Source of the DNA: Patescibacteria group bacterium
GTDB lineage: Bacteria > Patescibacteriota > Minisyncoccia > Phycocordibacterales > SBAW01
Length of the DNA: 30,523 nucleotides
Assembly: GCA_038056365.1 (NCBI GenBank)
Contig: JBBUFU010000045.1
Location: forward strand, 1 to 30,523
Direction of reading: 5' to 3'
Below the pieces are notes generated by a model. It did no database searches and had not been told where the DNA came from. It saw nothing but the letters and a program-made list of their open reading frames with translations. The position numbers and the translations under genes are program-made. This document shows positions 6,930 through 30,523 of this stretch, piece by piece (positions within the stretch are counted from its first letter, which is position 1; each line of letters starts with the position of its first letter).

Positions 6930-8489
6930 ATGATTCGCGAACGAATAGAGCAGGCCATACGCGCAGCAGTGGGGGAGAATGTTCCTTTTGTCGTCGAGCG
7001 GCCGCGGGCGCTTGCTCATGGCGACTACGCCACCAACGCCGCGCTTGTCGCCAAGGTAGACCCCGGCGAGCTGGCGGCAAAATTAAAGATAGAGGGAGTC
7101 GAAAAGGTTGAGGTCGCGGGCAAGTTCATCAATTTTTATCTCTCCCGCGCGGCGCTGGTGCCGAAAGAAGAAAAGGTTCCCCAGCTTAACGCGGGCAAGA
7201 CCATTTTGGTCGAGTACACGAGCCCGAACCTTTTTAAGCCGCTCCACATCGGCAACTTGGTAAGCAATATTTTGGGCGAGTCGGTCGCGCGCCTTCTTGA
7301 GCGCACCGGCGCCAGGGTTATGAGAATTAACTTTCCCTCCGATATCGGGCTGACGGTCGCCAAAGGTGTGTGGGGGCTTCAAAAGCTCAGCCTCGACCCG
7401 GGCGACATTGCCCAGCTTGGTCGCGCCTACGTAGCGGGTACCGAAGCGTACGAAGGCGCCGCAAAGAAAGAAATAGAGGCGGTCAACAAGGCGCTGTACG
7501 AAAACTCCGACCCGGCACTAAGTAGCCTGCGCGCCCAAGGCATCGAAACATCGCGCAAACACTTGGACGGGTTGTGCGCGCGGCTCGGCTCAAAGTTCGA
7601 CAAAGAGTTTTTTGAGAGCGAGTCGGGCCCCATCGGCCGCGAGCTGGTGCGCGCAAACATGGGTACGGTCTTCGAGGAGAGCGACGGGGCGGTGGTGTAT
7701 CGCGGCGAGCAAGACGGCCTGCATACCCGAGTGTTCCTCAACTCGGTGGGGCTGCCGACGTATGAGGCGAAAGACCTCGGGCTTCTTAAACTCAAACTCG
7801 ACACGTATCCGGATTTTGATATCACCATAACCGACACAGGCCCCGAACAGACGGAATATTTTAAAGTGCTGTACGCCGCGGCACGTAAGGTGTTTCCGCA
7901 ACTAAAAAATAAAACGCTCGGGCATATTGCGCACGGCTACCTCAAACTTAGCAGCGGCAAGATGTCCTCGCGGCTCGGCAACGTCATCACCGGCGAGTCC
8001 CTGCTTGACGATGTTACCCTAGCCGCCCGCGGCAAGGAGGAGGTTGCGGTCGGCGCGCTCAAATATATGGTGCTCAAGTCGGGCAATGGCAGAGATATTA
8101 TTTTTGACCCGGAGAAATCGCTTTCGCTCGAGGGCGACTCGGGGCCATACTTGCAGTACGCGCGGGTACGCGCAGGGTCGTTGCTCACAAAAATAAAAGA
8201 GGCGGGGCTCTCGGCGGGCACCGAAGACATGCCCACAGAGGCAAGCGCGCTTGAGCGTGTGCTCGTCCATTACACCGATGCAGTGGCTCGCGCGGCCAAA
8301 GAGCTCGAGCCGCATTACCTCACGACCTTTTTGACCGAGTTGGCGGCGGCATTTAACAGTTGGTACGCGAGCGAGCGCGTCATCGGCGGAAAGTATCCCG
8401 AGTACGGCGCATTCCTAACCGCCGCCGTCGAGCGCACCTTGCGCGAGGGGCTCGAGACGCTCGGCATTCCCGTCCCCGAGGAGATGTAA
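6930..8489 (+). CDS. argS: Arginine--tRNA ligase
   Basis: HGDYATN, VEYTSPNLFKPLHIGNL, GKMSSRLGNV, GDSGPYLQYA, DALR-type C-terminus. Confidence 0.96.
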   Translation: MIRERIEQAIRAAVGENVPFVVERPRALAHGDYATNAALVAKVDPGELAAKLKIEGVEKVEVAGKFINFYLSRAALVPKEEKVPQLNAGKTILVEYTSPNLFKPLHIGNLVSNILGESVARLLERTGARVMRINFPSDIGLTVAKGVWGLQKLSLDPGDIAQLGRAYVAGTEAYEGAAKKEIEAVNKALYENSDPALSSLRAQGIETSRKHLDGLCARLGSKFDKEFFESESGPIGRELVRANMGTVFEESDGAVVYRGEQDGLHTRVFLNSVGLPTYEAKDLGLLKLKLDTYPDFDITITDTGPEQTEYFKVLYAAARKVFPQLKNKTLGHIAHGYLKLSSGKMSSRLGNVITGESLLDDVTLAARGKEEVAVGALKYMVLKSGNGRDIIFDPEKSLSLEGDSGPYLQYARVRAGSLLTKIKEAGLSAGTEDMPTEASALERVLVHYTDAVARAAKELEPHYLTTFLTELAAAFNSWYASERVIGGKYPEYGAFLTAAVERTLREGLETLGIPVPEEM

Positions 8490-8509
8490 TTTTTGTTATA
8501 GTTCTTGGT

Positions 8510-11500
8510 ATGTCTGAACTCGCCAAACGGGAAGAGAAAATCCTTGAATTTTGGAATAAAGAGAAGATTTTTGAGAAGTCGTTGCAAAAGCCCGCGCCGA
8601 AGGGCGAATTTATCTTTTATGACGGGCCGCCGTTCGCCAACGGCCTGCCGCACTATGGCCACATCCTCGCGAGCGCCATCAAAGACGCCATCCCGCGCTA
8701 CCGCACCATGACGGGCTACCGCGTGCCGCGGCAATGGGGCTGGGACTGCCACGGCCTGCCGGTCGAAAACTTGGTAGAGAAAGAGCTTGGGCTTAAGGCC
8801 AAGCGCGACATCGAGGCGTACGGGGTAGAAAAGTTTAACGCCGCGGCTCGTACCTCTATCATGAAGGATGTTGCGGATTGGAAGCGCATTATCCCGCGCA
8901 TCGGGCGCTGGGCCGACATGGAGGCGGACTACAAAACCATGGACGCGAGCTACACGCAGAGCGTGTGGTGGGCGTTTAAAAACTTGTACGACCGCGGTTT
9001 GGTGTACGAAGGGTTTAAGGCGATGCACTTGTGCCCCCGTTGTGGTACGACGCTCAGCAACTTTGAGGTCGCGCAGGGCTACCTGGACATCGAGGACTTT
9101 GCGGTCACGGTTAAACTGCCGCTGGTGGACGACCCCGATACTTCGCTGTTGATTTGGACCACGACGCCGTGGACGCTCCCCGGCAACCCAGCCGCGGCGG
9201 TTAAGGCCGATGCGGAATATGTAAAAGTAAAAGTAGGAGGCGAATATTTAATCACGGCGGAGGGAAAGCTAGAGGGAGAAGTCGTAAAAAAATATAAAGG
9301 GAGCGAGTTGGTCGGCAAAAAGTATCTGCCGCCGTTCGATTACTTTGCGACCGAGTTGCACAAGCACAAGACCCATTTGTGGAAGGTGTACGCCGCCGAC
9401 TACGTCACCATGGAGGACGGCACCGGCATCGTACACCTGGCGCCGGCCTACGGCGCCGACGACCTTGCGCTCGCGCAAAAAAATAAAATACCGCTCATCC
9501 ATCATGTGACCGACGAGGGTAAGTTTATCGCGACTGTGCGCGACTTTGCGGGCATGCCCGTTAAGCCCAAAGGCCGCCATCTCGAGACCGACGCCAAAAT
9601 TGTTGAATATTTACGCGAGAAGGGATTGTTGTTTAAAGACGAAAAGATAAAGCACAGCTATCCGCATTGCTGGCGTTGCGACACGCCGCTCTTAAACTGG
9701 GCGGCCACCTCGTGGTTTGTAAACGTACAAAAAATAAAAGGCAACTTGCTTAAGCAAAATGCGACCGTCGGCTGGGTGCCCGCGCATGTGGGGGAGGGAC
9801 GCTTCGGCAAATGGCTCGAAGGCGCGCGCGACTGGGCCGTCTCGCGCGGCCGCTACTGGGGCGCACCCGTGCCGGTATGGCGCAACGAAAAAACGAAGGA
9901 AGTAAAAATAGTAGGCTCGGTTACCGAACTTTTGTCGATAGCCAAGCGCTCGGGTAACCGCTATTTTGTAATGCGCCACGGCGAGGCCTTGAGTAATGTA
10001 CGGGATGTTGACGACCTCTCCGGCGACCCGGAAAATCATCTGACCGAAAAAGGTATCAACGCGGTTAAACACGCGGCACTTGATTTAAAAAAAGAGCAGA
10101 TAGACTTTATTGTCGTCTCTCCATTTATACGCACGCGGGAAACCGCAGCCATTGTGCAGGGCGAGCTTGGCCTGCCCGACAAGGCTGTCGTAGTGGATGA
10201 GCGGATGCGCGAAGGCGGGAGCCATGACTCCGCCGGGGTCCGTCAACGTGTCGGCCAGTTTATATTTGAAGTTGAGCAACGGTATGTAAATAAAAATATA
10301 CTATTCGTTAGCCACGGCTATCCGCTTTGGGTTCTCAATAATATAGCCGGGCACAAAATGTCGGACTTATACACGAGGTTAGATTTGCCGGAGCTTGCGA
10401 GCGTGTGCGAGCTACTGTTTACCCCGTTTCCGCACAACGCAGACTACGAGCTCGACCTGCACCGGCCGTATATCGACGATTTTGCGACGGGGGAGTGGCG
10501 CCGCGACAAAGATGTTTTTGACTGCTGGTTCGAGTCGGGCTCGATGCCGTTTGCCGGCAAAGGGTACCCGCTTAATAAAACAACTTTCGACCCGAAGAAA
10601 TTCTTCGGCTACGCGCCAAGGGGCTACCCGGCCGACTTTATCGCCGAGGGGACCGACCAGACGCGCGGATGGTTTTATTCGCTGATTGTCCTTGGCACCG
10701 CGCTCTTCGGCCGCACGCCGTATAAAAACGTCATCGTCAACGGCATCATCACCGCCTCGGACGGGCAAAAGATGAGCAAGCGGCTGAGGAACTATCCCGA
10801 CCCGATGGAGGTGGTCGAGAAGTACGGCGCCGATTCTTTGCGGTACTTCCTGCTCTCTTCATCGGTGGTGCGCGCCGAAGACCTGCGCTTTAACGAGCGC
10901 GGGGTAGAGGAGGTGGGCAAAAAACTGCTGATGCGGCTGGACAACGTGCGGAGTTTTTATGATTTGTATGCAGGAGCGGGAAAAGGTCTGACCTTGGAGA
11001 GCCCTGAGCTAAGATCAGACCTTAAGGAGCACGTGCTTGATCGCTGGATTTTCTCGCGCCTCGGGCAGCTCGTTAAGGAAACAACTCAAGGTTTCGAGCG
11101 GTACGAACTGGACATTGCGGCGCGCCCGCTCGGCGCTTTCATCGACGACCTTTCGACCTGGTACCTGCGCCGCTCGCGCGACCGTTTTAAAACCGAAGGT
11201 CCAGATAAGGCGGCCGCACTCGCAACGTTGCGCGAAGTGCTTATGGTTACCTCAAAGGTTATGGCGCCACTCATGCCGTTTTTTGCCGACGACCTGTATC
11301 GTCGCCTGCGCGCCGAGGGCGAGCCGGAGAGCGTGCACTTGTGCGACTGGCCCGCGGCACCGGCGGTTGACGAAAAACTTATCGCCGACATGGCCGCAGT
11401 GCGGCAACTCGCCAGCAAAGGGCTCGAGCTGCGCGAAAAGGCGGGTATCAAGGTGCGCCAGCCGCTCGGCGCGTTTGAGACTGCCGTGCCGGTTGTCGAA

Positions 11501-11815
11501 GAGCTCGCGGCTATTCTTAAAGATGAGCTCAACGTAAAAGAAATTAAGTACAATCCCGACCTTAAAGAAAACAGATTAGCTACTGAGCTAACTGCAGAGT
11601 TGAAAGAAGAGGGGATGTACCGCGACTATGTGCGCACTATCCAGGAGTGGCGCAAGGAGCAAAAGTTTTCTATCGCCGACCGACCGGGCTTGCTGATTAA
11701 AACCAACATCGACCTGGAGTTTCTTAAAAAGTTTAAAGAGGTGCTTAAGGAGGCCACGGGCCTGCTGTCACTTGAGGTCAAAGAATCTGAATCGGTCCAG
11801 TTAGAAAGATTGTAG
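8510..11815 (+). CDS. ileS: Isoleucine--tRNA ligase (type 2) with an inserted histidine-phosphatase-like domain
   Basis: DGPPFANGLPHYGH, GWDCHGLPVE, WTTTPWTLP, HLAPAYG, DLHRPYID, AEGTDQTRGWF, KMSKR; extra RHG...SHG domain at ~9950-10400. True start ATG 8510. Confidence 0.95.
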   Translation: MSELAKREEKILEFWNKEKIFEKSLQKPAPKGEFIFYDGPPFANGLPHYGHILASAIKDAIPRYRTMTGYRVPRQWGWDCHGLPVENLVEKELGLKAKRDIEAYGVEKFNAAARTSIMKDVADWKRIIPRIGRWADMEADYKTMDASYTQSVWWAFKNLYDRGLVYEGFKAMHLCPRCGTTLSNFEVAQGYLDIEDFAVTVKLPLVDDPDTSLLIWTTTPWTLPGNPAAAVKADAEYVKVKVGGEYLITAEGKLEGEVVKKYKGSELVGKKYLPPFDYFATELHKHKTHLWKVYAADYVTMEDGTGIVHLAPAYGADDLALAQKNKIPLIHHVTDEGKFIATVRDFAGMPVKPKGRHLETDAKIVEYLREKGLLFKDEKIKHSYPHCWRCDTPLLNWAATSWFVNVQKIKGNLLKQNATVGWVPAHVGEGRFGKWLEGARDWAVSRGRYWGAPVPVWRNEKTKEVKIVGSVTELLSIAKRSGNRYFVMRHGEALSNVRDVDDLSGDPENHLTEKGINAVKHAALDLKKEQIDFIVVSPFIRTRETAAIVQGELGLPDKAVVVDERMREGGSHDSAGVRQRVGQFIFEVEQRYVNKNILFVSHGYPLWVLNNIAGHKMSDLYTRLDLPELASVCELLFTPFPHNADYELDLHRPYIDDFATGEWRRDKDVFDCWFESGSMPFAGKGYPLNKTTFDPKKFFGYAPRGYPADFIAEGTDQTRGWFYSLIVLGTALFGRTPYKNVIVNGIITASDGQKMSKRLRNYPDPMEVVEKYGADSLRYFLLSSSVVRAEDLRFNERGVEEVGKKLLMRLDNVRSFYDLYAGAGKGLTLESPELRSDLKEHVLDRWIFSRLGQLVKETTQGFERYELDIAARPLGAFIDDLSTWYLRRSRDRFKTEGPDKAAALATLREVLMVTSKVMAPLMPFFADDLYRRLRAEGEPESVHLCDWPAAPAVDEKLIADMAAVRQLASKGLELREKAGIKVRQPLGAFETAVPVVEELAAILKDELNVKEIKYNPDLKENRLATELTAELKEEGMYRDYVRTIQEWRKEQKFSIADRPGLLIKTNIDLEFLKKFKEVLKEATGLLSLEVKESESVQLERL

Positions 11816-20156: not shown

Positions 20157-20579
20157 TCATTTCTCCTCCGCCCGCGCGGGGGAGTTTTGCTGGTCCTGAG
20201 CTTGTCGAAGGATTTGTCCTTGCCATCCGCCGAGCATTTTGCCGACGTCATCTACCTGGGCGGAGAGGGCGATGTATCTTTTGTCGCGCAAAGACTTTGT
20301 TTCCCACAAAACCATGAGTAATAGTTGGACGGTGTTCAACTTTCTTATGGCACTGCTTACAAAAGGCAATTTCTTATCCCGCGGCAAAAATTCCGCCCCC
20401 GATATCGCTTCCATGGTCTCGATAAACAAACAGTCTACTCTTTCGCCGACGGTATAGCGGTGAATCTTCGGCAGAGTAGAATAATATTCATGCCACAACA
20501 AGTAAGCCTGTTTGACCCGCTCCAAAACCGGCAACAAACTCCTGCGGGGGGGGGTCGTCAAAGAAGTATTTTCGCTCAT
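20157..20579 (-). CDS. avd: DGR accessory variability determinant Avd (four-helix-bundle protein)
   Basis: LPVLERVKQAYLLW...LPKIHRYTVGERVD...DDVGKMLGGW (the ..GxMLGGW signature of Avd/bAvd); adjacent to TR and RT. Start ATG 20579 is likely. Confidence 0.85.
   Translation of the reverse strand: MSENTSLTTPPRRSLLPVLERVKQAYLLWHEYYSTLPKIHRYTVGERVDCLFIETMEAISGAEFLPRDKKLPFVSSAIRKLNTVQLLLMVLWETKSLRDKRYIALSAQVDDVGKMLGGWQGQILRQAQDQQNSPARAEEK
20163..20188 (+). terminator. Hairpin plus T-run just 3' of TR (candidate TR-RNA 3' stem or terminator)
   Basis: CTCCTCCGC-CCGC-GCGGGGGAG (one G.T pair) followed by TTTT. Confidence 0.5.
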
Positions 20580-21554
20580 ACGTATGAAGATATCATTTCT
20601 GTCGAAAATTTGCTCGAAGCGTGGAAGGAGTTCCGCCGTGGCAAGCGCAAAAAGCTGGATGTCCTCGAATTTCAGCATGACTTGATATATCAAGTCACAG
20701 AGCTCCACCACGACCTAGTGAGTCAGACTTACAGGCATGGTGGGTATAAACACTTCCGCATCAGTGACCCCAAGCCCCGCGACATCCACAAGGCATCCGT
20801 GCGCGACCGGCTTTTGCACCACGCCATATACCGCAAACTCTACCCATTCTTCGACCGCACTTTCATATCCGACTCCTACTCCTGCCGCCTAGGGAAGGGC
20901 ACGCACAAAGCAATGAATCAGTTTAGAGATTTTGCCTACCAAGTATCCAAAAACCACACCCGCACCTGCTGGGTACTCAAATGCGATATCCGCAAGTTCT
21001 TTGCGAGCATAGACCACCAAACCCTCTTTGCAATTCTTGAGAAATATATACCCGACCAAAATATACTTTGGTTGTTGCGCGAAGTGGTCTCCAGCTTCCA
21101 GACCAAAACTTGGACACCCCGTGTCCAAGTTTTGGCCAAGGGCTTGCCGCTCGGCAACTTGACCAGCCAGCTGTTAGTAAATATCTATATGAACGAGTTC
21201 GACCGGTTTGTTAAGCACAAACTCAAAGCAAAATACTACATACGGTATGCCGATGACTTCGTACTTCTTTCTGATAACAAAACCGAGTTAGAGAAAAGAC
21301 TGGCGATTATCGTAGTCTTATTGCGTGATGAATTAAAATTACAACTACACCCAAATAAAGTATCAATACAAACTTTTGCTTCGGGCGTCGACTTTTTGGG
21401 CTGGGTGCATTTTATCGGCTACCGGGTGTTGCGGACAGCGAGTAAGCGGCGGATTTTTAAAAAACTGCAAGAAAACAACAAAAAAGAAGTCATCGAATCG
21501 TATCGCGGGCTGTTAGGCCACGGCAACGCGCATAAGTTGCGGCAAAAATTGTGA
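20490..21554 (+). CDS. DGR-type reverse transcriptase
   Basis: YEDIISVENLLEAW, KPRDI...VRDRLLHHA, GKGTH, CDIRKFFASIDH, GLPLGNLTSQ (SQ form typical of DGR RTs), catalytic YADD, GVDFLGW. Start 20490 is the likely ATG but is not certain. Confidence 0.95.
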   Translation: MPQQVSLFDPLQNRQQTPAGGGRQRSIFAHTYEDIISVENLLEAWKEFRRGKRKKLDVLEFQHDLIYQVTELHHDLVSQTYRHGGYKHFRISDPKPRDIHKASVRDRLLHHAIYRKLYPFFDRTFISDSYSCRLGKGTHKAMNQFRDFAYQVSKNHTRTCWVLKCDIRKFFASIDHQTLFAILEKYIPDQNILWLLREVVSSFQTKTWTPRVQVLAKGLPLGNLTSQLLVNIYMNEFDRFVKHKLKAKYYIRYADDFVLLSDNKTELEKRLAIIVVLLRDELKLQLHPNKVSIQTFASGVDFLGWVHFIGYRVLRTASKRRIFKKLQENNKKEVIESYRGLLGHGNAHKLRQKL

Positions 21555-23725: not shown

Positions 23726-23749
23726 ACCTCCCGGTTGGGAGGTTTTTTT
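23724..23749 (+). terminator. Intrinsic terminator between convergent genes
   Basis: AAACCTCCC-GGTT-GGGAGGTTT followed by further Ts. Confidence 0.8.
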
Positions 23750-25310
23750 ATATCTCCTGAAATACCGGAATTAGGTTGACGGTTATCGAGACAGACCCCG
23801 CGCCGGTGCAGGAGAGCGTAAACCGGGTCGCGCCCGTAACGGGATTGGTGGCGACACCGGTGCCGCTCCAGGTACCTGATGTGCCCGCCGGCATTGTCAC
23901 CAAGAAGACGCTCGCGGGCAAAGAGCGCACCAAGCATGTTACGGCCGGGTCTCCAACAAGGCCGGCGGCGCTCCACGAAAGGACTGCAGGGTTTCCCTTG
24001 CTCACTCTGTATTGCGCGGCGCTTAGCGAGAGCGTTGGGGGGATCGGGGTGCAAGAGCCATTGGTGAGCGTATAGCCGTTTGCGCACGAACACAGCGGAG
24101 GTACGGCATGCGGGTCGGAGCAGGTTGTGGGGAGGACGCACGCGCCATTTTGCAAGATGTAGCCGACGTCGCAATTGCACGTGGGGTAGTTTATCTGGTG
24201 TGCGCCGGGGCAGGTGCGCTCATTGGGCACACACCGGCCGCTACCGGAGCCGTACAAACTTGTGTTGCCCGGAGACCCCGGCTCCCAGTGCGTGCCGGCA
24301 GGACATACCGGATGTGCAATCACTCTCAGTGATTTACCGTAATTGTTCCAGTTGGAGTACTGCCCGGTTTGGGCGGCCGGATAAAAAATATACTGTCCGG
24401 CCGCTGTCGGAATAAACGTGTAACTCTTTGACCCCAGCGGGGCGGCCGTCCACATCGAAGCGTTGCATATATTGCCGGTGCCGCACCATAAATTGTTTTG
24501 GTAGTTATTGATTGCGGTCTTGAACAGCGTGTCTCCCGCCGCCGGTATAAATGTGGCCGAGACCGTCACTGCCTCGCCGACCGCGACCGTGATCGAACCG
24601 GTTTGGCCGTTGCCTACGATGGTAAGCATCGGTGGCGGTGTAAGGTATATTGCTACGTAGCCGTTTGCGCCGTTTTGCCCGGAGTGGCCGCTGGCGCCGC
24701 CGGAGCCTTGTCCACTCCCGTTGGTGCCCCCGGCATTACTGCCCGCATAATACAAAGCTCCGCTCTGGCCCTTGCCGCCGCCGGGCGTGCCTCCCGCACC
24801 GCCGGCCCAGCTGGAGTTGCCGATGCCGCCCGTTGCGATTACCGAACCGCCAAACGATGAACCGCCGCCGGCCGCCCCGGAAGAGGGATTGTCCCGGCCG
24901 CAAACAAACGGGCCGCCGGTGCCGCCGGTGCCGACCACCACTGTATATTGAGCGCCCGGTGTCACCGGCACCTCTTGGCCGGTGATATAGCCGCCCGAGC
25001 CGCCCCCGCCGCCGGTATCGGCGTCGCCGCCACATCCGTCACTCCACCGAAGGCCGCCTCCGCCGCCGCCCGCGCCGACGACCGTGACCCACACTCGTGT
25101 CACGTAGCCGGGGGCTGTCCAAGTGTAGGTGCCGTTGCTCGCATAGGTTGCCACGGCCGCCGGCTGGGAAGACAAACTTTTTTGCAACGATAATTTGCCC
25201 GTGCTCGAAAAAAAGGGCGCGTTGCCCGAGAGTACGAGCGCTACGCCGACAAGCAAGGCAAATCCCGCACACAAAACAACAAGTTCCCACGGCTTTTTGT
25301 CTGGGCTCAT
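23748..25310 (-). CDS. Membrane-anchored/secreted surface protein with a glycine-rich domain and Cys-rich EGF-like repeats
   Basis: N-terminal hydrophobic helix; YTWTAP..VTVVGAGGGGGG...GGSGGY...YTVVVGTGG Gly-rich module; CxC-x-GY-x4-G-x-C repeats; C-terminal beta domain. Start 25310 lies 12 nt after a minus-strand TATAAT. Confidence 0.65.
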   Translation of the reverse strand: MSPDKKPWELVVLCAGFALLVGVALVLSGNAPFFSSTGKLSLQKSLSSQPAAVATYASNGTYTWTAPGYVTRVWVTVVGAGGGGGGLRWSDGCGGDADTGGGGGSGGYITGQEVPVTPGAQYTVVVGTGGTGGPFVCGRDNPSSGAAGGGSSFGGSVIATGGIGNSSWAGGAGGTPGGGKGQSGALYYAGSNAGGTNGSGQGSGGASGHSGQNGANGYVAIYLTPPPMLTIVGNGQTGSITVAVGEAVTVSATFIPAAGDTLFKTAINNYQNNLWCGTGNICNASMWTAAPLGSKSYTFIPTAAGQYIFYPAAQTGQYSNWNNYGKSLRVIAHPVCPAGTHWEPGSPGNTSLYGSGSGRCVPNERTCPGAHQINYPTCNCDVGYILQNGACVLPTTCSDPHAVPPLCSCANGYTLTNGSCTPIPPTLSLSAAQYRVSKGNPAVLSWSAAGLVGDPAVTCLVRSLPASVFLVTMPAGTSGTWSGTGVATNPVTGATRFTLSCTGAGSVSITVNLIPVFQEI

Positions 25311-25346
25311 ACGTATGAGCCTATTATACAACCCGTGCGGGCGGCC

Positions 25347-25937
25347 CTATTTCTTATCTACGCGCTCGACGTACTCTCCCAGTTCGGTATTGACCCGGAC
25401 GAGGTCGCCCTCGTTGATAAAGAGGGGGGCGGTCACGGTGGCGCCGGTTTCGAGCGTCACGACCTTACTGCCGCCCTGGGCGGTGTTGCCGCGCACGGCG
25501 GGCGGCGCGTCTGTTACTTTAAGCTCCATTTTGATGGGGATTTTGATGCCGATTATTTTTTCGTCAAAAACCAGCGCCTCGACCAGCATGTCGGGCTTCA
25601 TAAACTGCGCCCCCGTACCGATGGTTGATTCGGAGAGCATAAAGCGGTCGGCCGGATTCTTTTCGTCGCAAAACCACCGCTCGCCCTGCCTACCGGCAGG
25701 CAGGCCTTGTTTGGTGTAGAGGTATTTGACCGACTTGGTGGAGAGGTCGGCCTCGGAAGCCTTTTCCGAGACGTGGAAGGCCATCTCGGTCACCTTGCCG
25801 GTGACAAGGTGGCGCAGTTTGGTTTGGTTGACCGGCTTGCGCTGCTGTTTGCGGAAGACGTGCGCGTCGAGCACCTCGTAGGGTTCGTCGCCCACGAGTA
25901 TTACTTTGCCTTTGAGAATTTCATTGTATTCGAGCAT
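25347..25937 (-). CDS. efp: Elongation factor P
   Basis: KLRHLVTGKV, YLY, VTDAPPAVRGNTAQGGSKVVTLETGATVTAPLFINEGDLVRVNTELGEYVER. Start ATG 25937. Confidence 0.93.
   Translation of the reverse strand: MLEYNEILKGKVILVGDEPYEVLDAHVFRKQQRKPVNQTKLRHLVTGKVTEMAFHVSEKASEADLSTKSVKYLYTKQGLPAGRQGERWFCDEKNPADRFMLSESTIGTGAQFMKPDMLVEALVFDEKIIGIKIPIKMELKVTDAPPAVRGNTAQGGSKVVTLETGATVTAPLFINEGDLVRVNTELGEYVERVDKK
25685..25704. repeat. Short palindromic element CCTGCCT-ACCGGC-AGGCAGG inside efp
   Basis: Perfect 7-bp stem; the 21-bp unit is flanked by a GCC direct repeat (25683-85 and 25704-06) and encodes LPAGRQG. Confidence 0.7.
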
Positions 25938-25943
25938 TGAGAG

Positions 25944-25953
25944 ACTATATACT
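25944..25953. promoter_or_regulatory. Overlapping divergent -10 boxes for efp and the ligase operon
   Basis: Plus-strand TATACT (25948-53) is 6 nt before ATG 25960; minus-strand TATAGT (25949-44) is 6 nt before ATG 25937. Confidence 0.65.
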
Positions 25954-25959
25954 AGCGGT

Positions 25960-27186
25960 ATGCAGTGGGTCAATCGCGCGGCACTCCAAACCTTGCTTGA
26001 TTTTGTTGTGGACAGCCCGCACTCTTCGCTGTATCGCGACAAATACACGCGCGCAGGGTTGGCCGAGCCGGCGGTCGACGATTTTTCAAAATTGCCGACG
26101 CTGTCGCGCCGCGAGTTGGTCGACCTGCCGGTAGCAAAGCGTACGTTTGTGCCGTCCGGCGAAGTGCGCTTTGTCGCGTTTACCTCCGGTACGTCGGCGC
26201 GCGCGCCGCTTATCGTGCCCTTTAGCGACGTCGAGAACTACTTTTTTGAGCCCTCGCTCGGTCTCCCGGTCCTCCGGCCGCTCATTATTTATCCGCCGCT
26301 CAACAAAAACTTCGGCGCGAGTTTTATCCAACAGTGCCGGCAAGCCAAGGCCCCCGTCTCGCCGATGTTTGCCGACTTTCAAAACTTGGCCAACAGCGCG
26401 CTTCTCGCCAGAGAAATGCAGTGCGACTCGCTGTATGCCACCCCCACCATCGCGAGCCTCTTTGCCGGACAGGCGCGTGCGCAGGGTATCGAGCGGAATT
26501 TTAAACTACTGGCGCTTTCTTCCGAAACGCTGACGGCGGCGCGGCGCGCGGAGCTTGGCCGCGCGTACCCAGGTGCAAAAATCGCCAACTTGTATGCCAG
26601 CTCCGAAATAGGGCAGTTTGTCATGGCGCCCTGCCCCCGCATGATCGAGCGCGGAGTGAGCGAGTTTCATATCATCGCCGACGCGCTCGCGGCGGTCGAA
26701 ATCATAGACGGCGAACTGGTGGTGTCTTATGGGCAGAACCGCGCCATGCCGCTGGTGCGCTACCGCACCGGCGATTTTTTTGAGGAGGGAGAGCCGTGCG
26801 CCTGCGGCCTGCCGGGGCCGACCCTGCGCTGGTCGCATCGCGACGCAGACCGCGTGCGCATCAACGGCCTGGAGTTTACGGTCGAGGAGGCCGATCGCGT
26901 GATGGGGGAGTTGCCGCACATGCCTGCGCCCGACTACCAAATACACTTCGAGCCGGGCGAGGGCGCCGCCGTAATGATGCGTATCGAGATAGTCGGCGGC
27001 CCCGAGACTCATGCGCAGGCCGCCGGCATTGCGCGCGACCTCCCCGCGCGCTGGCGGCTGTCCTCGACCGCAACGCTCCGCGATGCCCTCGATCGCGGAC
27101 TGTTGTCGGGCATCAGCGTCGAAATAGTGCCTGTGGTGTCCGACCGCACCGCCAAAGCAAAACGCTTTGTCACCCATGTACGCTAA
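25960..27186 (+). CDS. Phenylacetate--CoA ligase (PaaK)-family adenylate-forming enzyme
   Basis: P-loop FTSGTS, YASSEIG, LVRYRTGD, C-terminal KAKR catalytic lysine motif. Confidence 0.8.
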   Translation: MQWVNRAALQTLLDFVVDSPHSSLYRDKYTRAGLAEPAVDDFSKLPTLSRRELVDLPVAKRTFVPSGEVRFVAFTSGTSARAPLIVPFSDVENYFFEPSLGLPVLRPLIIYPPLNKNFGASFIQQCRQAKAPVSPMFADFQNLANSALLAREMQCDSLYATPTIASLFAGQARAQGIERNFKLLALSSETLTAARRAELGRAYPGAKIANLYASSEIGQFVMAPCPRMIERGVSEFHIIADALAAVEIIDGELVVSYGQNRAMPLVRYRTGDFFEEGEPCACGLPGPTLRWSHRDADRVRINGLEFTVEEADRVMGELPHMPAPDYQIHFEPGEGAAVMMRIEIVGGPETHAQAAGIARDLPARWRLSSTATLRDALDRGLLSGISVEIVPVVSDRTAKAKRFVTHVR

Positions 27187-28741
27187 GCTCGAACAATACG
27201 GGTACGTCCTGCCGGCCCTCTCGGGAGTCCTTTTGGTGCTGACTTTTCATCCCTTTGATTTTTGGCCGCTGGGGTTTGTCGCGCTGATGCCGCTCTTTTA
27301 TTTTATTACCGCTTTCCCCGGCCGGCCGGCATGGCGTACTTTTTGGGGCGGCTTTATCACCGGCGGACTGTTTGCCTTTGCACTGTCGTACTTTACGCTC
27401 ATCCAGTTCCACTGGTTGCCCGGCGCGTATTTGTTTGCCGGTGCGGTGCGTTTGCTGGTCGTACCTATCACGCTATTGTCGGGCGCACTGGTGGGCTTGC
27501 TCTCGGTCGTCGTGTACCGGGCTTTCTACTCGCGTTCCATATTTCTTAATGCGCTCCTGGCCGCGGCCGTCTACACCGCCGCCGAGTTACTGCTCCAACG
27601 TCTCTTTGGCGGGTACTATCTTGCAACGTTGGCATACGCGGCCGTGCCGCTTCCGCCCCTGCTTAGCCTGGCGGCGCTCGGCGGCGCCCCCCTCCTGTCG
27701 TTTTTTGTCGCCTGGATAAACGGTTTTTTAACCGAGGCCCTGATAGCCTGGCGTACCCGGCCGCAGGCGCTCGCCCGTGCGGCGGCCGCATCGGCGGCGC
27801 TTTTTCTGGTCGTGTTTCTGCCGAATTATATCTACTTGCACCGGCCGCTCGCGGCGCAAAAGACGCTCTCGGTTGCGGTACTACAGGCGGCCTCGCGCGG
27901 GACAATAGCCTTTGGCACGCAAAAAAACGGCGTATTTTTTTGGTCGATGGGACAGCGCCTTGCGCAGGCCGCCGCGACCGCGCCTGACCTTTTGATATAT
28001 CCGTTCTCGCCGGTCGAGGGTGCGCTGTACCGCTCGCAGGCTCCCGCGTTCAACAAAGAGGTGTTGGTGGCGAGCGAGCAGTCGGTCGCGCGGTTTCTGG
28101 CCGGGACTCTGCCCGCAAGCACGACGCTCATGACCTGGAACAATCTCTACGCCGACGGCAGTTTTTATAACGAGTACGAGTTGTGGCGCGGCGGCCGTGT
28201 TGTGTCTGAGTATCAAAAGCGCGAGCTGTTTGCCTTTATGGATTACACGCCGCGGTGGGCGCAAAAGTTTGGTCTTTTTTCGACGCCGTTCGACGTCACG
28301 CCCGGCACTCCCGACAATCGTTTGGTGCTCGATGGGGTGCCGCTCGGAGACCTCATGTGCTCGGAGCTCCACCATACTTCGCTCGCGCGTAGCGAGGCGC
28401 GCCGCGCGCCGCTTATTATCGCGGTCGGCTCAGAGGCGATGTTTGAGGACGATGTGGCGAGCGCCTTTAGCCTCAAGGCGGCGCAATTGCGCGCGGCCGA
28501 AAACGACCTGCCGGTCGTCCGCGGCAATATTTTGGGGCCCTCGGGCATCATCGACCGCTTCGGCGTTTTGACCGCGTACGCGCCCGCCGGCACGGCGGGC
28601 GCTATCGCGGGGGAGGTGGCGCTTACGGCCCCGCGCCAAACGCTCTACAACCGCCTCGGCGACTCTATAATATGGGTCGTTTTGTGTGGCATACTAGCCA
28701 GCGCATGGTACACACGCTCACGGGCAAAAACCTTACGATAG
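27176..28741 (+). CDS. Apolipoprotein N-acyltransferase (Lnt)-like membrane protein with a CN-hydrolase domain
   Basis: Lnt-like multi-TM N-terminus (LTFHPFDFWPLGFVALMPL); nitrilase-fold motifs YQKRELFAFMDY, LMCSE and LRAAENDLPVVR...GPSGIID; C-terminal TLYNRLGD. Confidence 0.8.
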   Translation: MYAKLEQYGYVLPALSGVLLVLTFHPFDFWPLGFVALMPLFYFITAFPGRPAWRTFWGGFITGGLFAFALSYFTLIQFHWLPGAYLFAGAVRLLVVPITLLSGALVGLLSVVVYRAFYSRSIFLNALLAAAVYTAAELLLQRLFGGYYLATLAYAAVPLPPLLSLAALGGAPLLSFFVAWINGFLTEALIAWRTRPQALARAAAASAALFLVVFLPNYIYLHRPLAAQKTLSVAVLQAASRGTIAFGTQKNGVFFWSMGQRLAQAAATAPDLLIYPFSPVEGALYRSQAPAFNKEVLVASEQSVARFLAGTLPASTTLMTWNNLYADGSFYNEYELWRGGRVVSEYQKRELFAFMDYTPRWAQKFGLFSTPFDVTPGTPDNRLVLDGVPLGDLMCSELHHTSLARSEARRAPLIIAVGSEAMFEDDVASAFSLKAAQLRAAENDLPVVRGNILGPSGIIDRFGVLTAYAPAGTAGAIAGEVALTAPRQTLYNRLGDSIIWVVLCGILASAWYTRSRAKTLR

Positions 28742-30258
28742 CGGCGCTCAACGCCATTGCGCGCGGGGCCAAGGTAAAGATTTCGCAGGCGGCTTTGCGC
28801 CGCGCCGGCCGCTCAAAGGAGTTTCTTGACCGCGAGGCGCGCAAGCGTATCATCTACGGCGTCAATACCGGTTTTGGGCCTATGGCCTCGCGCCTCATAG
28901 GCAAAGATGACCTCGGGGCCCTGCAGTACAACCTGGTGCGCAGTCATGCCTGCGGCGCGGGCGAACCGGTCGCGGACGAGTACGTGCTTGCGGCGATGGT
29001 AGTGCGGCTCAATACGCTTTTGCGCGGCGACTCCGGCGTCACGGCCAGCCTCTTGCATCTGCTCGCCAAGCTTATTAACGCAAGGTTCGCTCCGGTAGTC
29101 CCCGAACACGGCGGGGTAGGAGCCTCGGGCGACCTTATCCAGCTCTCGCATATCGCGCTCGGGCTTATCGGCGAGGGCGAGGTGCGCCTGCGCGGCAGGC
29201 GCATGAGCGCAAAGCGGGCTCTGCAAAAACTCAACCTTAAACCCCACCGTTTGGGGCAAAAAGAAGGCTTGGCGCTCATCAACGGCACGTCCTTTATGGC
29301 CGGCGTCGCAGCGCTGGTTGCGCACGAAGGGCGGCAGATACTTGCTATCGCCGTGCGCGCGAGTGCCTTGGCGCTCGAGGCCGTAGGCGCGTTTGACGAC
29401 AGTCTCGCGCCGTACCTCCATGCCGCCCGGCCGCACCCGGGGCAGGGCGAGGTGGCCCGGTTGTTGCGCGCGCTCACCAAAGGCTCAAAACTTTTGCGCC
29501 CGCGCCAAGCGTTTGAACACTCCCAAGCGCTTGAAGAGGGAACCGTCGACCTTGAGCGCAAAGCGCAGGATGTCTACTCGCTCCGTTGTGCGCCTCAGAT
29601 ACTCGGGCCCATGCTCGAGACGCTCCGCATGGTTGAGCATACGATTGAAGTTGAGATTAATTCGGCGACCGACAACCCGCTTATCGACGCGGGGGCCGGC
29701 CGGGTGCTCCACGGGGGCAACTTTCACGGCGAATATATTGCGGCGGCGATGGACAACCTCAAGCTTTCGCTCGCCAAGCTGTCGGTGCTGTGCGAGCGGC
29801 GGCTGAACTTCTTTTTGCACGACAAGGTCAACGGCATCTTCCCGCCGTTTCTTAACACGGGTACGCCGGGGCTCACCCTCGGCCTGCAGGGCCTGCAGTT
29901 TGTTGCGACGTCGACCGCGGCACAAAACCAGACCCTGGCTTATCCGCATTCGCTCCACTCGATACCGAGCAACGCCGACAATCAGGACGTCGTTTCGATG
30001 GGCGCGGACGCGGCGCTGTTTGCCGCGTGCACCGCCGCCAATACCGCTTTGGTGGTGGCAATCGAGCTCGCAGCGCTTTCGCAGGCGTTTGCCATAACCA
30101 AAGGCGAGCGCAGGGCGAGCCCGCAGGGCAGGGGGCTCATCGGGGCGATACGCAACAGAGTGAAGACGGTAGCGGAAGACCGCCCTCTGTGGCGCGACAT
30201 GCAAAACCTCGCCGGGGCGGTGCGCCGCGGCGAGGTGTGCGAGCCCCTTTTTGATTAA
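28705..30258 (+). CDS. MIO-dependent aromatic amino acid ammonia-lyase (HAL/PAL/TAL family; TAL/PAL-like motifs)
   Basis: IYGVNTGFG, MIO tripeptide ASG (GVGASGDL), EGLALINGT, YSLRCAPQILG, DNPLI, GGNFHG, NQDVVSMG. Start ATG 28705. Confidence 0.9.
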   Translation: MVHTLTGKNLTIAALNAIARGAKVKISQAALRRAGRSKEFLDREARKRIIYGVNTGFGPMASRLIGKDDLGALQYNLVRSHACGAGEPVADEYVLAAMVVRLNTLLRGDSGVTASLLHLLAKLINARFAPVVPEHGGVGASGDLIQLSHIALGLIGEGEVRLRGRRMSAKRALQKLNLKPHRLGQKEGLALINGTSFMAGVAALVAHEGRQILAIAVRASALALEAVGAFDDSLAPYLHAARPHPGQGEVARLLRALTKGSKLLRPRQAFEHSQALEEGTVDLERKAQDVYSLRCAPQILGPMLETLRMVEHTIEVEINSATDNPLIDAGAGRVLHGGNFHGEYIAAAMDNLKLSLAKLSVLCERRLNFFLHDKVNGIFPPFLNTGTPGLTLGLQGLQFVATSTAAQNQTLAYPHSLHSIPSNADNQDVVSMGADAALFAACTAANTALVVAIELAALSQAFAITKGERRASPQGRGLIGAIRNRVKTVAEDRPLWRDMQNLAGAVRRGEVCEPLFD

Positions 30259-30261
30259 TGT

Positions 30262-30492
30262 TTAGAGTATCGAACTGCAGCCGGTAAAGTGCGTGCCGTC
30301 GCTGCTCAGTTGGCAGGCGGTCGCGGGGGCGACACGCAGGGCTTTGCTGTCACCGAGTGCCTTGACGATAAAGGCGGTGACCGCTTGGGCGGCTACGGTT
30401 GCGGCGACAAGCGCGGCGACCATGAACAGAAGCATCGATGCTAGGAGGTTAGTAGTAAGGGTCATGGCTTTATTATGTTCCTGATTATTCAA
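30262..30492 (-). CDS. Small hypothetical membrane/secreted protein with a C-terminal Cys pair
   Basis: One long Ala-rich hydrophobic helix then CQLSSDGTHFTGC; alternative start 30465. Confidence 0.45.
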   Translation of the reverse strand: MNNQEHNKAMTLTTNLLASMLLFMVAALVAATVAAQAVTAFIVKALGDSKALRVAPATACQLSSDGTHFTGCSSIL

Positions 30493-30523
30493 AGCCTTCT
30501 ACTTGCACAGGAGAATCTGATGG

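Follow-up and report, generated by a model that had tools for sequence, protein, structure and literature searches.

A 30,523-nucleotide contig of a Patescibacteria group bacterium (JBBUFU010000045.1 of assembly GCA_038056365.1; this whole stretch is called the window below) carries towards its end a gene cassette encoding a PaaK-like adenylate-forming ligase, a membrane protein related to the lipoprotein N-acyltransferase Lnt, an aromatic amino acid lyase and a small peptide with two cysteines. We tentatively read this cassette, with a confidence somewhat short of even, as a Patescibacteria-specific module for the aryl-acylation of a peptide or of the envelope. The ligase, an Lnt-like enzyme without the catalytic glutamate and the two-cysteine peptide would form its core, with the lyase as a frequent fourth member. 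The reading is founded on observations: the linkage of the genes, the loss of the catalytic glutamate, the lack of a canonical pathway for lipoproteins, and the presence of a conserved peptide. The folds of the ligase and of the Lnt-like protein, taken from predicted models, are counted as established. An earlier sequence-only reading had singled out the ligase, Lnt-like and lyase genes as a trio without prior description, and our literature search likewise turned up no paper that treats these genes in combination, nor one about the Lnt of Patescibacteria.

The ligase gene (P0003, 408 aa) occupies positions 25960..27186 of the forward strand, from an ATG at 25960 to a stop codon at 27184-27186. 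It is followed on the same strand by the Lnt-like gene (P0004, 521 aa; 27176..28741), with an ATG at 27176, an alternative TTG at 27167 and its stop at 28739-28741, and by the gene for a 4-methylideneimidazole-5-one (MIO)-dependent aromatic amino acid ammonia-lyase or aminomutase (P0005, 517 aa; 28705..30258). Successive genes overlap by 11 nt and 37 nt; the three co-oriented, overlapping frames, including the 37-nt overlap, thus stand as first described. An alternative lyase ATG at 28672 would lengthen the second overlap to 70 nt, and the start at 28705 is preferred because homologues are 516-518 aa long. The family assignments made from the sequence alone were also borne out: the Lnt-like protein is recognized by Pfam LNT_N, the Lnt equivalog TIGR00546, alignments and predicted fold, the lyase by Lyase_aromatic (PF00221) and its GASGD motif, and the ligase as PaaK-like by its motifs, weak NCBIfam and PDB matches and predicted fold. 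A -10-like hexamer read from the sequence, TATACT (25948..25953, +), lies 6 nt 5′ of the ligase ATG in a leaderless-type layout; it is absent from the consensus-scan list of full sigma-70 sites. The consensus scan lists a promoter-like site, TCTACA-16-TATAAT (28644..28671, +; 10/12 matches), within the 3′ end of the Lnt-like gene, which possibly gives the lyase an additional, separate transcription start. The single operon behind one -10 box that had been proposed keeps its box ahead of the ligase, with this possible second start as a qualification. An open reading frame (ORF) overlooked in the earlier reading lies three bases past the lyase stop on the opposite strand (30262..30465, -). It encodes a small secreted or membrane-anchored peptide of 67 aa (pep), identified by ORF reading and a 21-member alignment.

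Gene linkage was followed in 33 Lnt-like loci assembled from species-representative genomes and three metagenome contexts, and in three additional contexts reached from remote ligases (40-45% identical), which bring the total of ligase loci, drawn from a diverse set of Patescibacteria, to 23. According to tblastn, the ligase gene adjoins the Lnt-like gene in 20 of the 33 Lnt-like loci and the lyase gene is present in 13; all three ligase-seeded contexts hold a ligase, an Lnt-like gene and a small ORF, and two of them a lyase. Ligase and Lnt-like genes are adjacent in every one of the 23 ligase loci, and the lyase occurs in 15. A hidden Markov model (HMM) of the peptide gave 17 strong matches and one weak match in the first 20 ligase loci, the two misses lying at contig ends, and matched all three further loci (20 strong and one weak of 23 in total). 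It found the peptide in none of 11 Lnt-like loci that lack the ligase. Across the linked loci, the ligases are as little as 37% identical and the Lnt-like proteins as little as 28%, and related contigs are labelled Nomura-, Adler- and Kaiserbacteria and Paceibacteria. The genes occur in at least three arrangements: ligase, Lnt-like gene and lyase; Lnt-like gene, peptide, ligase and lyase; and ligase and Lnt-like gene followed by peptide and lyase on the opposite strand. These variable orders argue for selection on linkage rather than inherited synteny alone.

The sequence-only reading had staked its proposal on co-conservation, and the linkage just described upholds it on that point: the three-gene neighbourhood is more than chance. 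It is extremely improbable that an ordinary Lnt, a histidine-catabolic HutH and a phenylacetate ligase became neighbours by mere chance in a genome that is compact. Patescibacterial genomes are gene-dense, overlapping genes are common in them, and each of the proteins alone receives a routine automatic name. However, co-conservation with rearrangement in 23 loci contradicts a chance neighbourhood, none of the three proteins reaches an equivalog cut-off, the catalytic glutamate of Lnt is lost, and Lgt, LspA and urocanase were not found in the source genome. This genome is assembled as 658 kb in 94 contigs with a completeness of 92%, so that "not found", for these proteins as for CoaE and carrier proteins below, is not proof of absence.

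The unit that is conserved differs from the one first proposed. Instead of the trio, the invariant core consists of the ligase, the Lnt-like protein and the small secreted cysteine peptide; the lyase, formerly taken as a fixed member, is optional, and in some loci an S-adenosylmethionine (SAM) methyltransferase gene stands in its place. Such a gene follows the Lnt-like gene in four loci without lyase and is of one type (f39) in L033 (5089-5910) and L034 and of another (f65) in L056 (6226-6852) and L057 (6658-7284). One SAM methyltransferase type weakly resembles the DVU_1556 family, and the best NCBIfam match of the ligase is the DVU_1553 family, which hints at a distant link of the cassette to the DVU_1553/DVU_1556 gene cluster of Desulfovibrio. 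One locus (L042, 9989-13134) carries two tandem Lnt-like genes behind the ligase.

The cassette is uncommon among species representatives. In a set of 100 related genomes, 60 belong to the same genus, and 13 of these 60 have Lnt-like genes. Close ligase homologues are confined to G004 (twice), G015 and G056, each adjoining an Lnt-like gene, and the lyase to G004 and G056, where it lies beside the ligase-Lnt-like pair, in a different gene order in G056. Among 101 genomes, the peptide is present only in the source genome, G004, G015 and G056, the same four that carry a close ligase. The ligase family is small, with 17 full-length clusters (50% identity) scoring at least 397 bits among 1.84 billion cluster representatives; below that value, no full-length protein scores until about 240 bits, the level at which a sister family starts. 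The ligase profile matched five proteins in 390 genomes drawn evenly from the phylum. All five belong to this sister PaaK-like family (24-26% identity), neither an Lnt-like gene nor the peptide adjoins them, they are excluded from the system described here, and no further copy of the cassette appeared in this sample. The sister ligases (L084-L088, in G137, G250, G268, G301 and G316) are common in another family of Patescibacteria.

The Lnt-like protein combines an eight-helix membrane domain with an extracytoplasmic nitrilase-type domain. It matches Pfam LNT_N (2e-17), its CN_hydrolase match lies under the cut-off of that family, and it scores 114.5 bits against the Lnt equivalog TIGR00546 (cut-off 132.9). 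Its AlphaFold model has a mean predicted local distance difference test score (pLDDT) of 91.7, and the top 24 PDB matches of the model are all Lnt, over the full length (template modelling (TM) score 0.68-0.74, E about 1e-22 to 1e-24). The catalytic triad of Lnt (Glu267-Lys335-Cys387) is nevertheless incomplete: Lys and Cys are kept and the glutamate is gone. In alignments with the Lnts of P. aeruginosa and Streptomyces, Phe277, in the motif Y-P-F-S-P, falls on the Glu of the Lnt WPE motif. This position is Phe across the sampled Lnt-like clade and Gln in a second Lnt-like paralogue of the source genome (contig C57, 3032-4543, -; loci L002/L027), which is 37% identical. Lys348, Cys395 and Glu397 are invariant in the family alignments; the nearby Glu of P-V-E-G is not conserved, being replaced by N, A, R, V, D or S in the family. 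In E. coli Lnt, the substitution Glu267Gln abolishes activity (PMC5500888). Thus the Lnt-like protein shares with the Lnts of E. coli and P. aeruginosa (PDB 5N6M, 5N6H, 8B0P and 6NWR) the fold, the Cys, the Lys and the C-S-E Glu, but differs in its identity of about 20%, its separate clade, the Phe or Gln at the position of Glu267, and its ancestral pairing with an adenylating ligase and a small peptide.

In a tree rooted on true Lnts, the phylogenetic check that the sequence-only reading had called for, the Patescibacteria Lnt-like proteins form one clade (support 100/99), separate from true Lnts. The copies linked to a ligase form a basal grade and those without ligase a single derived clade (92/89), which includes the C57 paralogue. 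Lgt (PF01790) and LspA (PF01252), sought in the source genome, were not found there or in the carrier genomes G004, G025, G027, G045 and G056 (94-96% complete); the same search found both in 10 of 14 control genomes. No diacylglyceryl-cysteine substrate would then be available to the Lnt-like protein. An ordinary Lnt was rejected on these grounds together with the missing glutamate and the score below the cut-off, and the missing catalytic residue, the separate clade and the lack of a detected Lgt or LspA partner agree with the earlier idea of a repurposed Lnt.

The ligase has no Pfam match. Its weak NCBIfam and PDB sequence matches are all to PaaK-type ligases, and it scores 18.9 bits against the PaaK equivalog TIGR02155 (cut-off 646) and 41 bits against NF041878 (cut-off 700). 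The core motifs TSGTS, SSE and YRTGD and the C-terminal Lys399 are invariant in 25 homologues, in which the invariant residues comprise Thr75, Ser76, Gly77, Glu216, Arg267, Tyr268, Thr270, Asp272 and Lys399. The predicted model (pLDDT 88.7) shows the two-domain PaaK fold and best matches PaaK1 (2Y27, E 3e-23), BT_0428, AjiA1, ClxA and NatL2 in the PDB. Together, the conserved motifs and the fold point to adenylation chemistry. With the PaaK-family enzymes of known structure (PDB 2Y27, 6WUQ, 6TM4 and 9S45) the ligase has in common the fold, the adenylation motifs and a C-x-C-G motif; it differs from them in being only 17-20% identical, in lacking a Pfam match and in forming a small family of its own that always lies beside an Lnt-like gene. 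Neither CoaE (PF01121) nor phosphopantetheine carrier domains (PP-binding) were found in the source genome. Because of this, and because its nearest solved relatives include the coenzyme A (CoA)-independent ligases AjiA1, NatL2 and ClxA, the CoA ester proposed from the sequence alone is doubtful, and the ligase probably acts without CoA, as an acyl-adenylate former.

The lyase matches Lyase_aromatic over residues 21-494 (529 bits, E 8.8e-159) and contains the MIO-forming motif G-A-S-G-D. Its best-scoring NCBIfam model is the FlxA tyrosine ammonia-lyase (TAL) model NF053541 (555 bits, cut-off 700), and it reaches 463 bits against hutH (TIGR01225, cut-off 539). The selectivity switch is Arg-Ser-His, as in the histidine ammonia-lyase (HAL) of P. 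putida, and the second specificity motif, N-Q-D-V-V-S-M, is that of tyrosine aminomutase and TAL; at this second motif, HAL has Glu, and TAL or phenylalanine ammonia-lyase has Gln (PMC3992019). Of 120 Patescibacteria lyase homologues, 119 have the Gln motif and 116 an x-[S/G/N]-His switch. The first selectivity position, which is His in the TAL type, is Ser in the window lyase and Gly in some homologues. With a HAL-like switch and a Gln motif of the TAL and aminomutase type in one protein, the substrate is not assignable from sequence. A role in histidine catabolism was rejected, given that no urocanase was found in the source genome, that Gln occupies the Glu414 site and that the score lies below the hutH cut-off. 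The protein was likewise not classed as a TAL: the Gln is present, but the first position is Ser instead of His and 555 bits is less than 700.

Membership in a flexirubin, aryl-polyene or yellow-protein pathway was rejected because no carrier protein was found genome-wide and no partners were found in the Pfam-scanned loci. FlxA reference sequences were sought in the control genomes, where none scored above the cut-off. The earlier statement that no polyketide synthase, acyl carrier protein (ACP), photoactive-yellow-protein or hut genes explain the lyase-ligase pair holds, and PP-binding domains and urocanase were undetected in the whole source genome as well. The pairs of TAL and 4-coumarate ligase (4CL) known from flexirubin FlxA/FlxY of Chitinophaga pinensis (PMC3992019) and from the yellow-protein chromophore genes resemble the cassette in having an MIO lyase beside an acid-activating ligase. 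In the cassette lyase, however, Ser-His takes the place of the His expected at the first selectivity position, and the ligase is of the PaaK type instead of the 4CL type, its match to FlxY spanning only 36 residues. Unlike these pairs, the cassette also comes without polyketide synthase, carrier protein or PAS-domain photoreceptor and with an Lnt-like enzyme. In photoactive yellow protein, a cysteine of the protein finally carries the acyl group in thioester linkage.

The small peptide has no Pfam or NCBIfam family match. An N-terminal signal or anchor is followed by a conserved G-L-x-D-S-x-x-I-R-V segment and by a C-terminus with two cysteines (...C-x(8-14)-H-F-T-G-C-S-S-I-L). Arg44, Cys51, Phe60, Gly62, Cys63 and Ser65 are invariant in the 21-member alignment. 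Positive charges precede the hydrophobic segment, and a classic A-x-A site for cleavage is seen in some of the homologues; from these features, the conserved part should lie outside the cell. We consider the peptide the most likely target or partner of the cassette.

The C-terminus of the peptide brings to mind the maturation of a pheromone or bacteriocin-like product. The ligase would adenylate the C-terminal carboxylate, the cysteine four residues before it would close a five-residue thiolactone, and the conserved I-R-V site would be processed by the Lnt-like protein, in the role of a membrane peptidase or similar enzyme. The sequence G-C-[SN]-S-[IL]-[LI] indeed has a free carboxylate at its end, with Cys63 and Ser65 invariant, and C-S-S-I-L resembles the ring of staphylococcal autoinducing peptides, with the same Cys+4 spacing. 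Peptide and ligase co-occur strictly, and enzymes of the nitrilase superfamily cut C-N bonds. Against this, the known substrates of PaaK-type ligases are small aromatic or short acids, not the C-termini of peptides, the lyase and methyltransferase partners find no explanation, and the loci share no conserved receptor kinase or exporter. We regard such maturation as very unlikely.

Folding the Lnt-like protein together with the peptide gave an interface score (ipSAE) of 0.57, compared with 0.00 for the best of three controls, which we grade as weak support. The pass mark for this score is reached by 58 of 80 solved complexes and by two of 110 mismatched pairs; passes at or below 0.60 comprise only 7 of the 80 solved complexes together with both of the passing mismatched pairs. 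The value of 0.57 for the predicted pair therefore lies in a range in which most passes are false unless there was prior reason to expect the pair, and in this respect it counts against our preferred reading. In the predicted interface, residues 33 and 36-49 of the peptide, from its conserved segment, lie on Lnt-like residues 81-87, 290-296 and 365-372. Residues 81-87 belong to the H3-H4 extension and 365-372 to the loop after the catalytic Lys. The H3-H4 extension forms one side of the substrate portal of Lnt (PMC5500888).

A contact at the Lnt substrate portal would also suit a lipopeptide, in which the Lnt-like protein N-acylates the N-terminus of the cleaved peptide with a fatty acyl group from phospholipid and so gives it a membrane anchor. 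Together with the lyase or the methyltransferase, the ligase would then serve a separate decoration or lipid recycling, like Aas beside Lnt in E. coli. Such a route is free of the topology problem discussed below. The protein retains the full Lnt fold with its membrane domain as well as the invariant Lys and Cys, and several peptide homologues have a typical cleavable Sec signal (e.g. ...SASA/AD in L031). It nevertheless leaves unexplained the strict coupling of the ligase to the Lnt-like clade, including their translational overlap, and the aromatic amino acid lyase in 15 of the 23 loci; moreover, the Glu that would act as general base for attack on an oxygen ester is missing. We judge the lipopeptide unlikely.

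For aryl-acylation, the reading that we prefer, the following sequence of steps can be proposed. The lyase would deaminate an aromatic amino acid, of the Tyr or His type, to an aryl-acrylate. The ligase would turn the aryl acid into an acyl-adenylate, probably without CoA, its substrate being suggested by linkage to the lyase. The acyl group would next have to get to the outer face of the membrane, for which the candidates are a lipid ester that flips across and a peptide cysteine loaded before export. There, Cys395 of the Lnt-like protein would accept the acyl group as a thioester, as the cysteine of Lnt does. The enzyme would finally hand it to an amine or thiol of the peptide or, alternatively, take it from the peptide for another envelope acceptor.

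Several points weigh against this scheme. The substrates of the lyase and of the ligase are inferred, and so is the acceptor. The ligase depends on ATP of the cytoplasm, whereas the active site of an Lnt-type enzyme and the conserved part of the peptide lie outside the membrane. Nor does the ligase always depend on the lyase, which is missing in 8 of the 23 loci. Loss of the glutamate could mean that the nitrilase domain is no transacylase. Finally, many of the loci come from related genomes and are not independent. Of the original proposal that an aryl-CoA is moved by a repurposed Lnt, the repurposing has stood, while the CoA ester is doubtful and the passage from cytoplasm to outside meets this mismatch in topology.

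The topology problem would be solved if the peptide itself were the vehicle. The ligase would load the aryl acid on a cysteine of the pre-peptide, which would be exported by Sec, and the Lnt-like protein would pass the acyl group by thiol exchange to a final envelope acceptor, e.g. the neighbouring surface proteins of the f1 type or a lipid, in a Dlt-like logic without a carrier protein. The lost general base would then also make sense; loss of the Glu should be easier to tolerate in thioester exchange than in attack on an oxygen ester. A shuttle of this kind suits a genome without detectable CoaE or ACP and a peptide with two invariant cysteines. It also fits the f1 proteins flanking nearly all Lnt-like loci, and DltX of D-alanylation offers a parallel, being likewise small and single-pass with a conserved C-terminal motif on the outside. 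On the other side, every transfer would use up a peptide unless there is recycling, the two cysteines may simply be paired in a disulfide (a DsbB gene adjoins one cassette), and we know of no precedent for an S-acylated pre-protein exported as a shuttle. We consider this route distinctly unlikely. The more general idea, that bacteria which seem to be without CoA synthesis and ACPs use a ribosomally made 67-aa peptide as an acyl shuttle that is exported by Sec and relieved of its load through thiol exchange by a Glu-less Lnt, onto surface proteins or lipids, is a long shot.

The Dlt pathway of D-alanylation (ligase DltA, carrier DltC, membrane acyltransferase DltB, small peptide DltX, and DltD) resembles the cassette in logic only. 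It combines an adenylating enzyme, which is cytoplasmic, with a polytopic membrane acyltransferase and a tiny single-pass peptide that has a conserved outward C-terminal motif. There is no homology between the two systems: the membrane enzyme of the cassette is of the Lnt type and not an MBOAT, no PP-binding carrier was found in the source genome, and the acid is probably aromatic instead of D-alanine.

Beyond the cassette genes, nearly all Lnt-like loci, with or without ligase, are flanked by genes for secreted proteins of 197 to 1278 aa, here called f1. These have a signal peptide, a second hydrophobic helix, a loop of the C-x-x-N-x-x-W-G-C type and a Gly-rich linker (loci L014-L060), and their conserved C-terminal domain ends in ...P-x-[YF]-[QK]-E-[IVF]. 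The Gly-rich secreted protein of 527 aa in the window (23748..25331, -; Pfam Gly_rich_2, 6e-10) ends in ...P-V-F-Q-E-I and clusters with the f1 proteins of 13 other loci; judging from its neighbourhood, it is possibly associated with the cassette. Beside the C57 paralogue neither a ligase nor the peptide is present, and an f1-type protein of 827 aa adjoins it. The f1 proteins may be the substrates of the ligase-less Lnt-like paralogues. Many loci also hold a four-helix membrane protein, an anchored helical protein of 250 aa and an ICMT/PEMT-like methyltransferase, and several loci have UbiA and glycosyltransferase family 2 (GT2) genes close by. The neighbouring proteins f1, f3 and f14/f24 have no Pfam or NCBIfam match.

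Another contig of the source genome (C47, locus L090; 1-4654, 4.6 kb) encodes an f1 protein, the four-helix membrane protein, the anchored helical protein, an ICMT/PEMT-like methyltransferase, a sigma factor and RecA. Its gene order is that found after the cassette in locus L029, and on the strength of this synteny C47 probably continues the window beyond position 30523.

Upstream, the nearest neighbour of the cassette is the gene for elongation factor P (EF-P; 25347-25937, -), on the strand opposite to the ligase. The gene content of the window is typical of Patescibacteria, with a dense array of tRNA synthetases, ThyA, DHFR, SHMT and a reverse transcriptase. The isoleucyl-tRNA synthetase (8360-11815, +) contains an inserted histidine-phosphatase domain (PF00300, residues 536-618, E 2e-19). 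The reverse transcriptase (20325-21554, +; RVT_1, 2e-28) lies in a region that the sequence-only reading had called a diversity-generating retroelement. DNA of the window is present in groundwater metagenomes, and the DNA runs that hold this stretch are groundwater runs only.

Lnt has so far been tied to the Lgt-LspA lipoprotein pathway. The cassette presents an Lnt rebuilt for another job, without catalytic glutamate or lipoprotein pathway, and tied to an ATP-dependent ligase and a dedicated peptide. Patescibacteria are ultra-small, are thought to live mostly attached to other cells and have a cell-surface chemistry that, to our knowledge, is almost unknown. Were a peptide or surface molecule bearing an aryl-acyl group the product, this would be an envelope modification of a new kind and a candidate for a role in signalling or adhesion; nature would also have provided an experiment on how nitrilase-type transacylases work without their general base. 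Should the peptide serve as a shuttle, it would represent a new mode of membrane transit for activated acyl groups. The system is small, with four genes and a substrate candidate of 67 aa.

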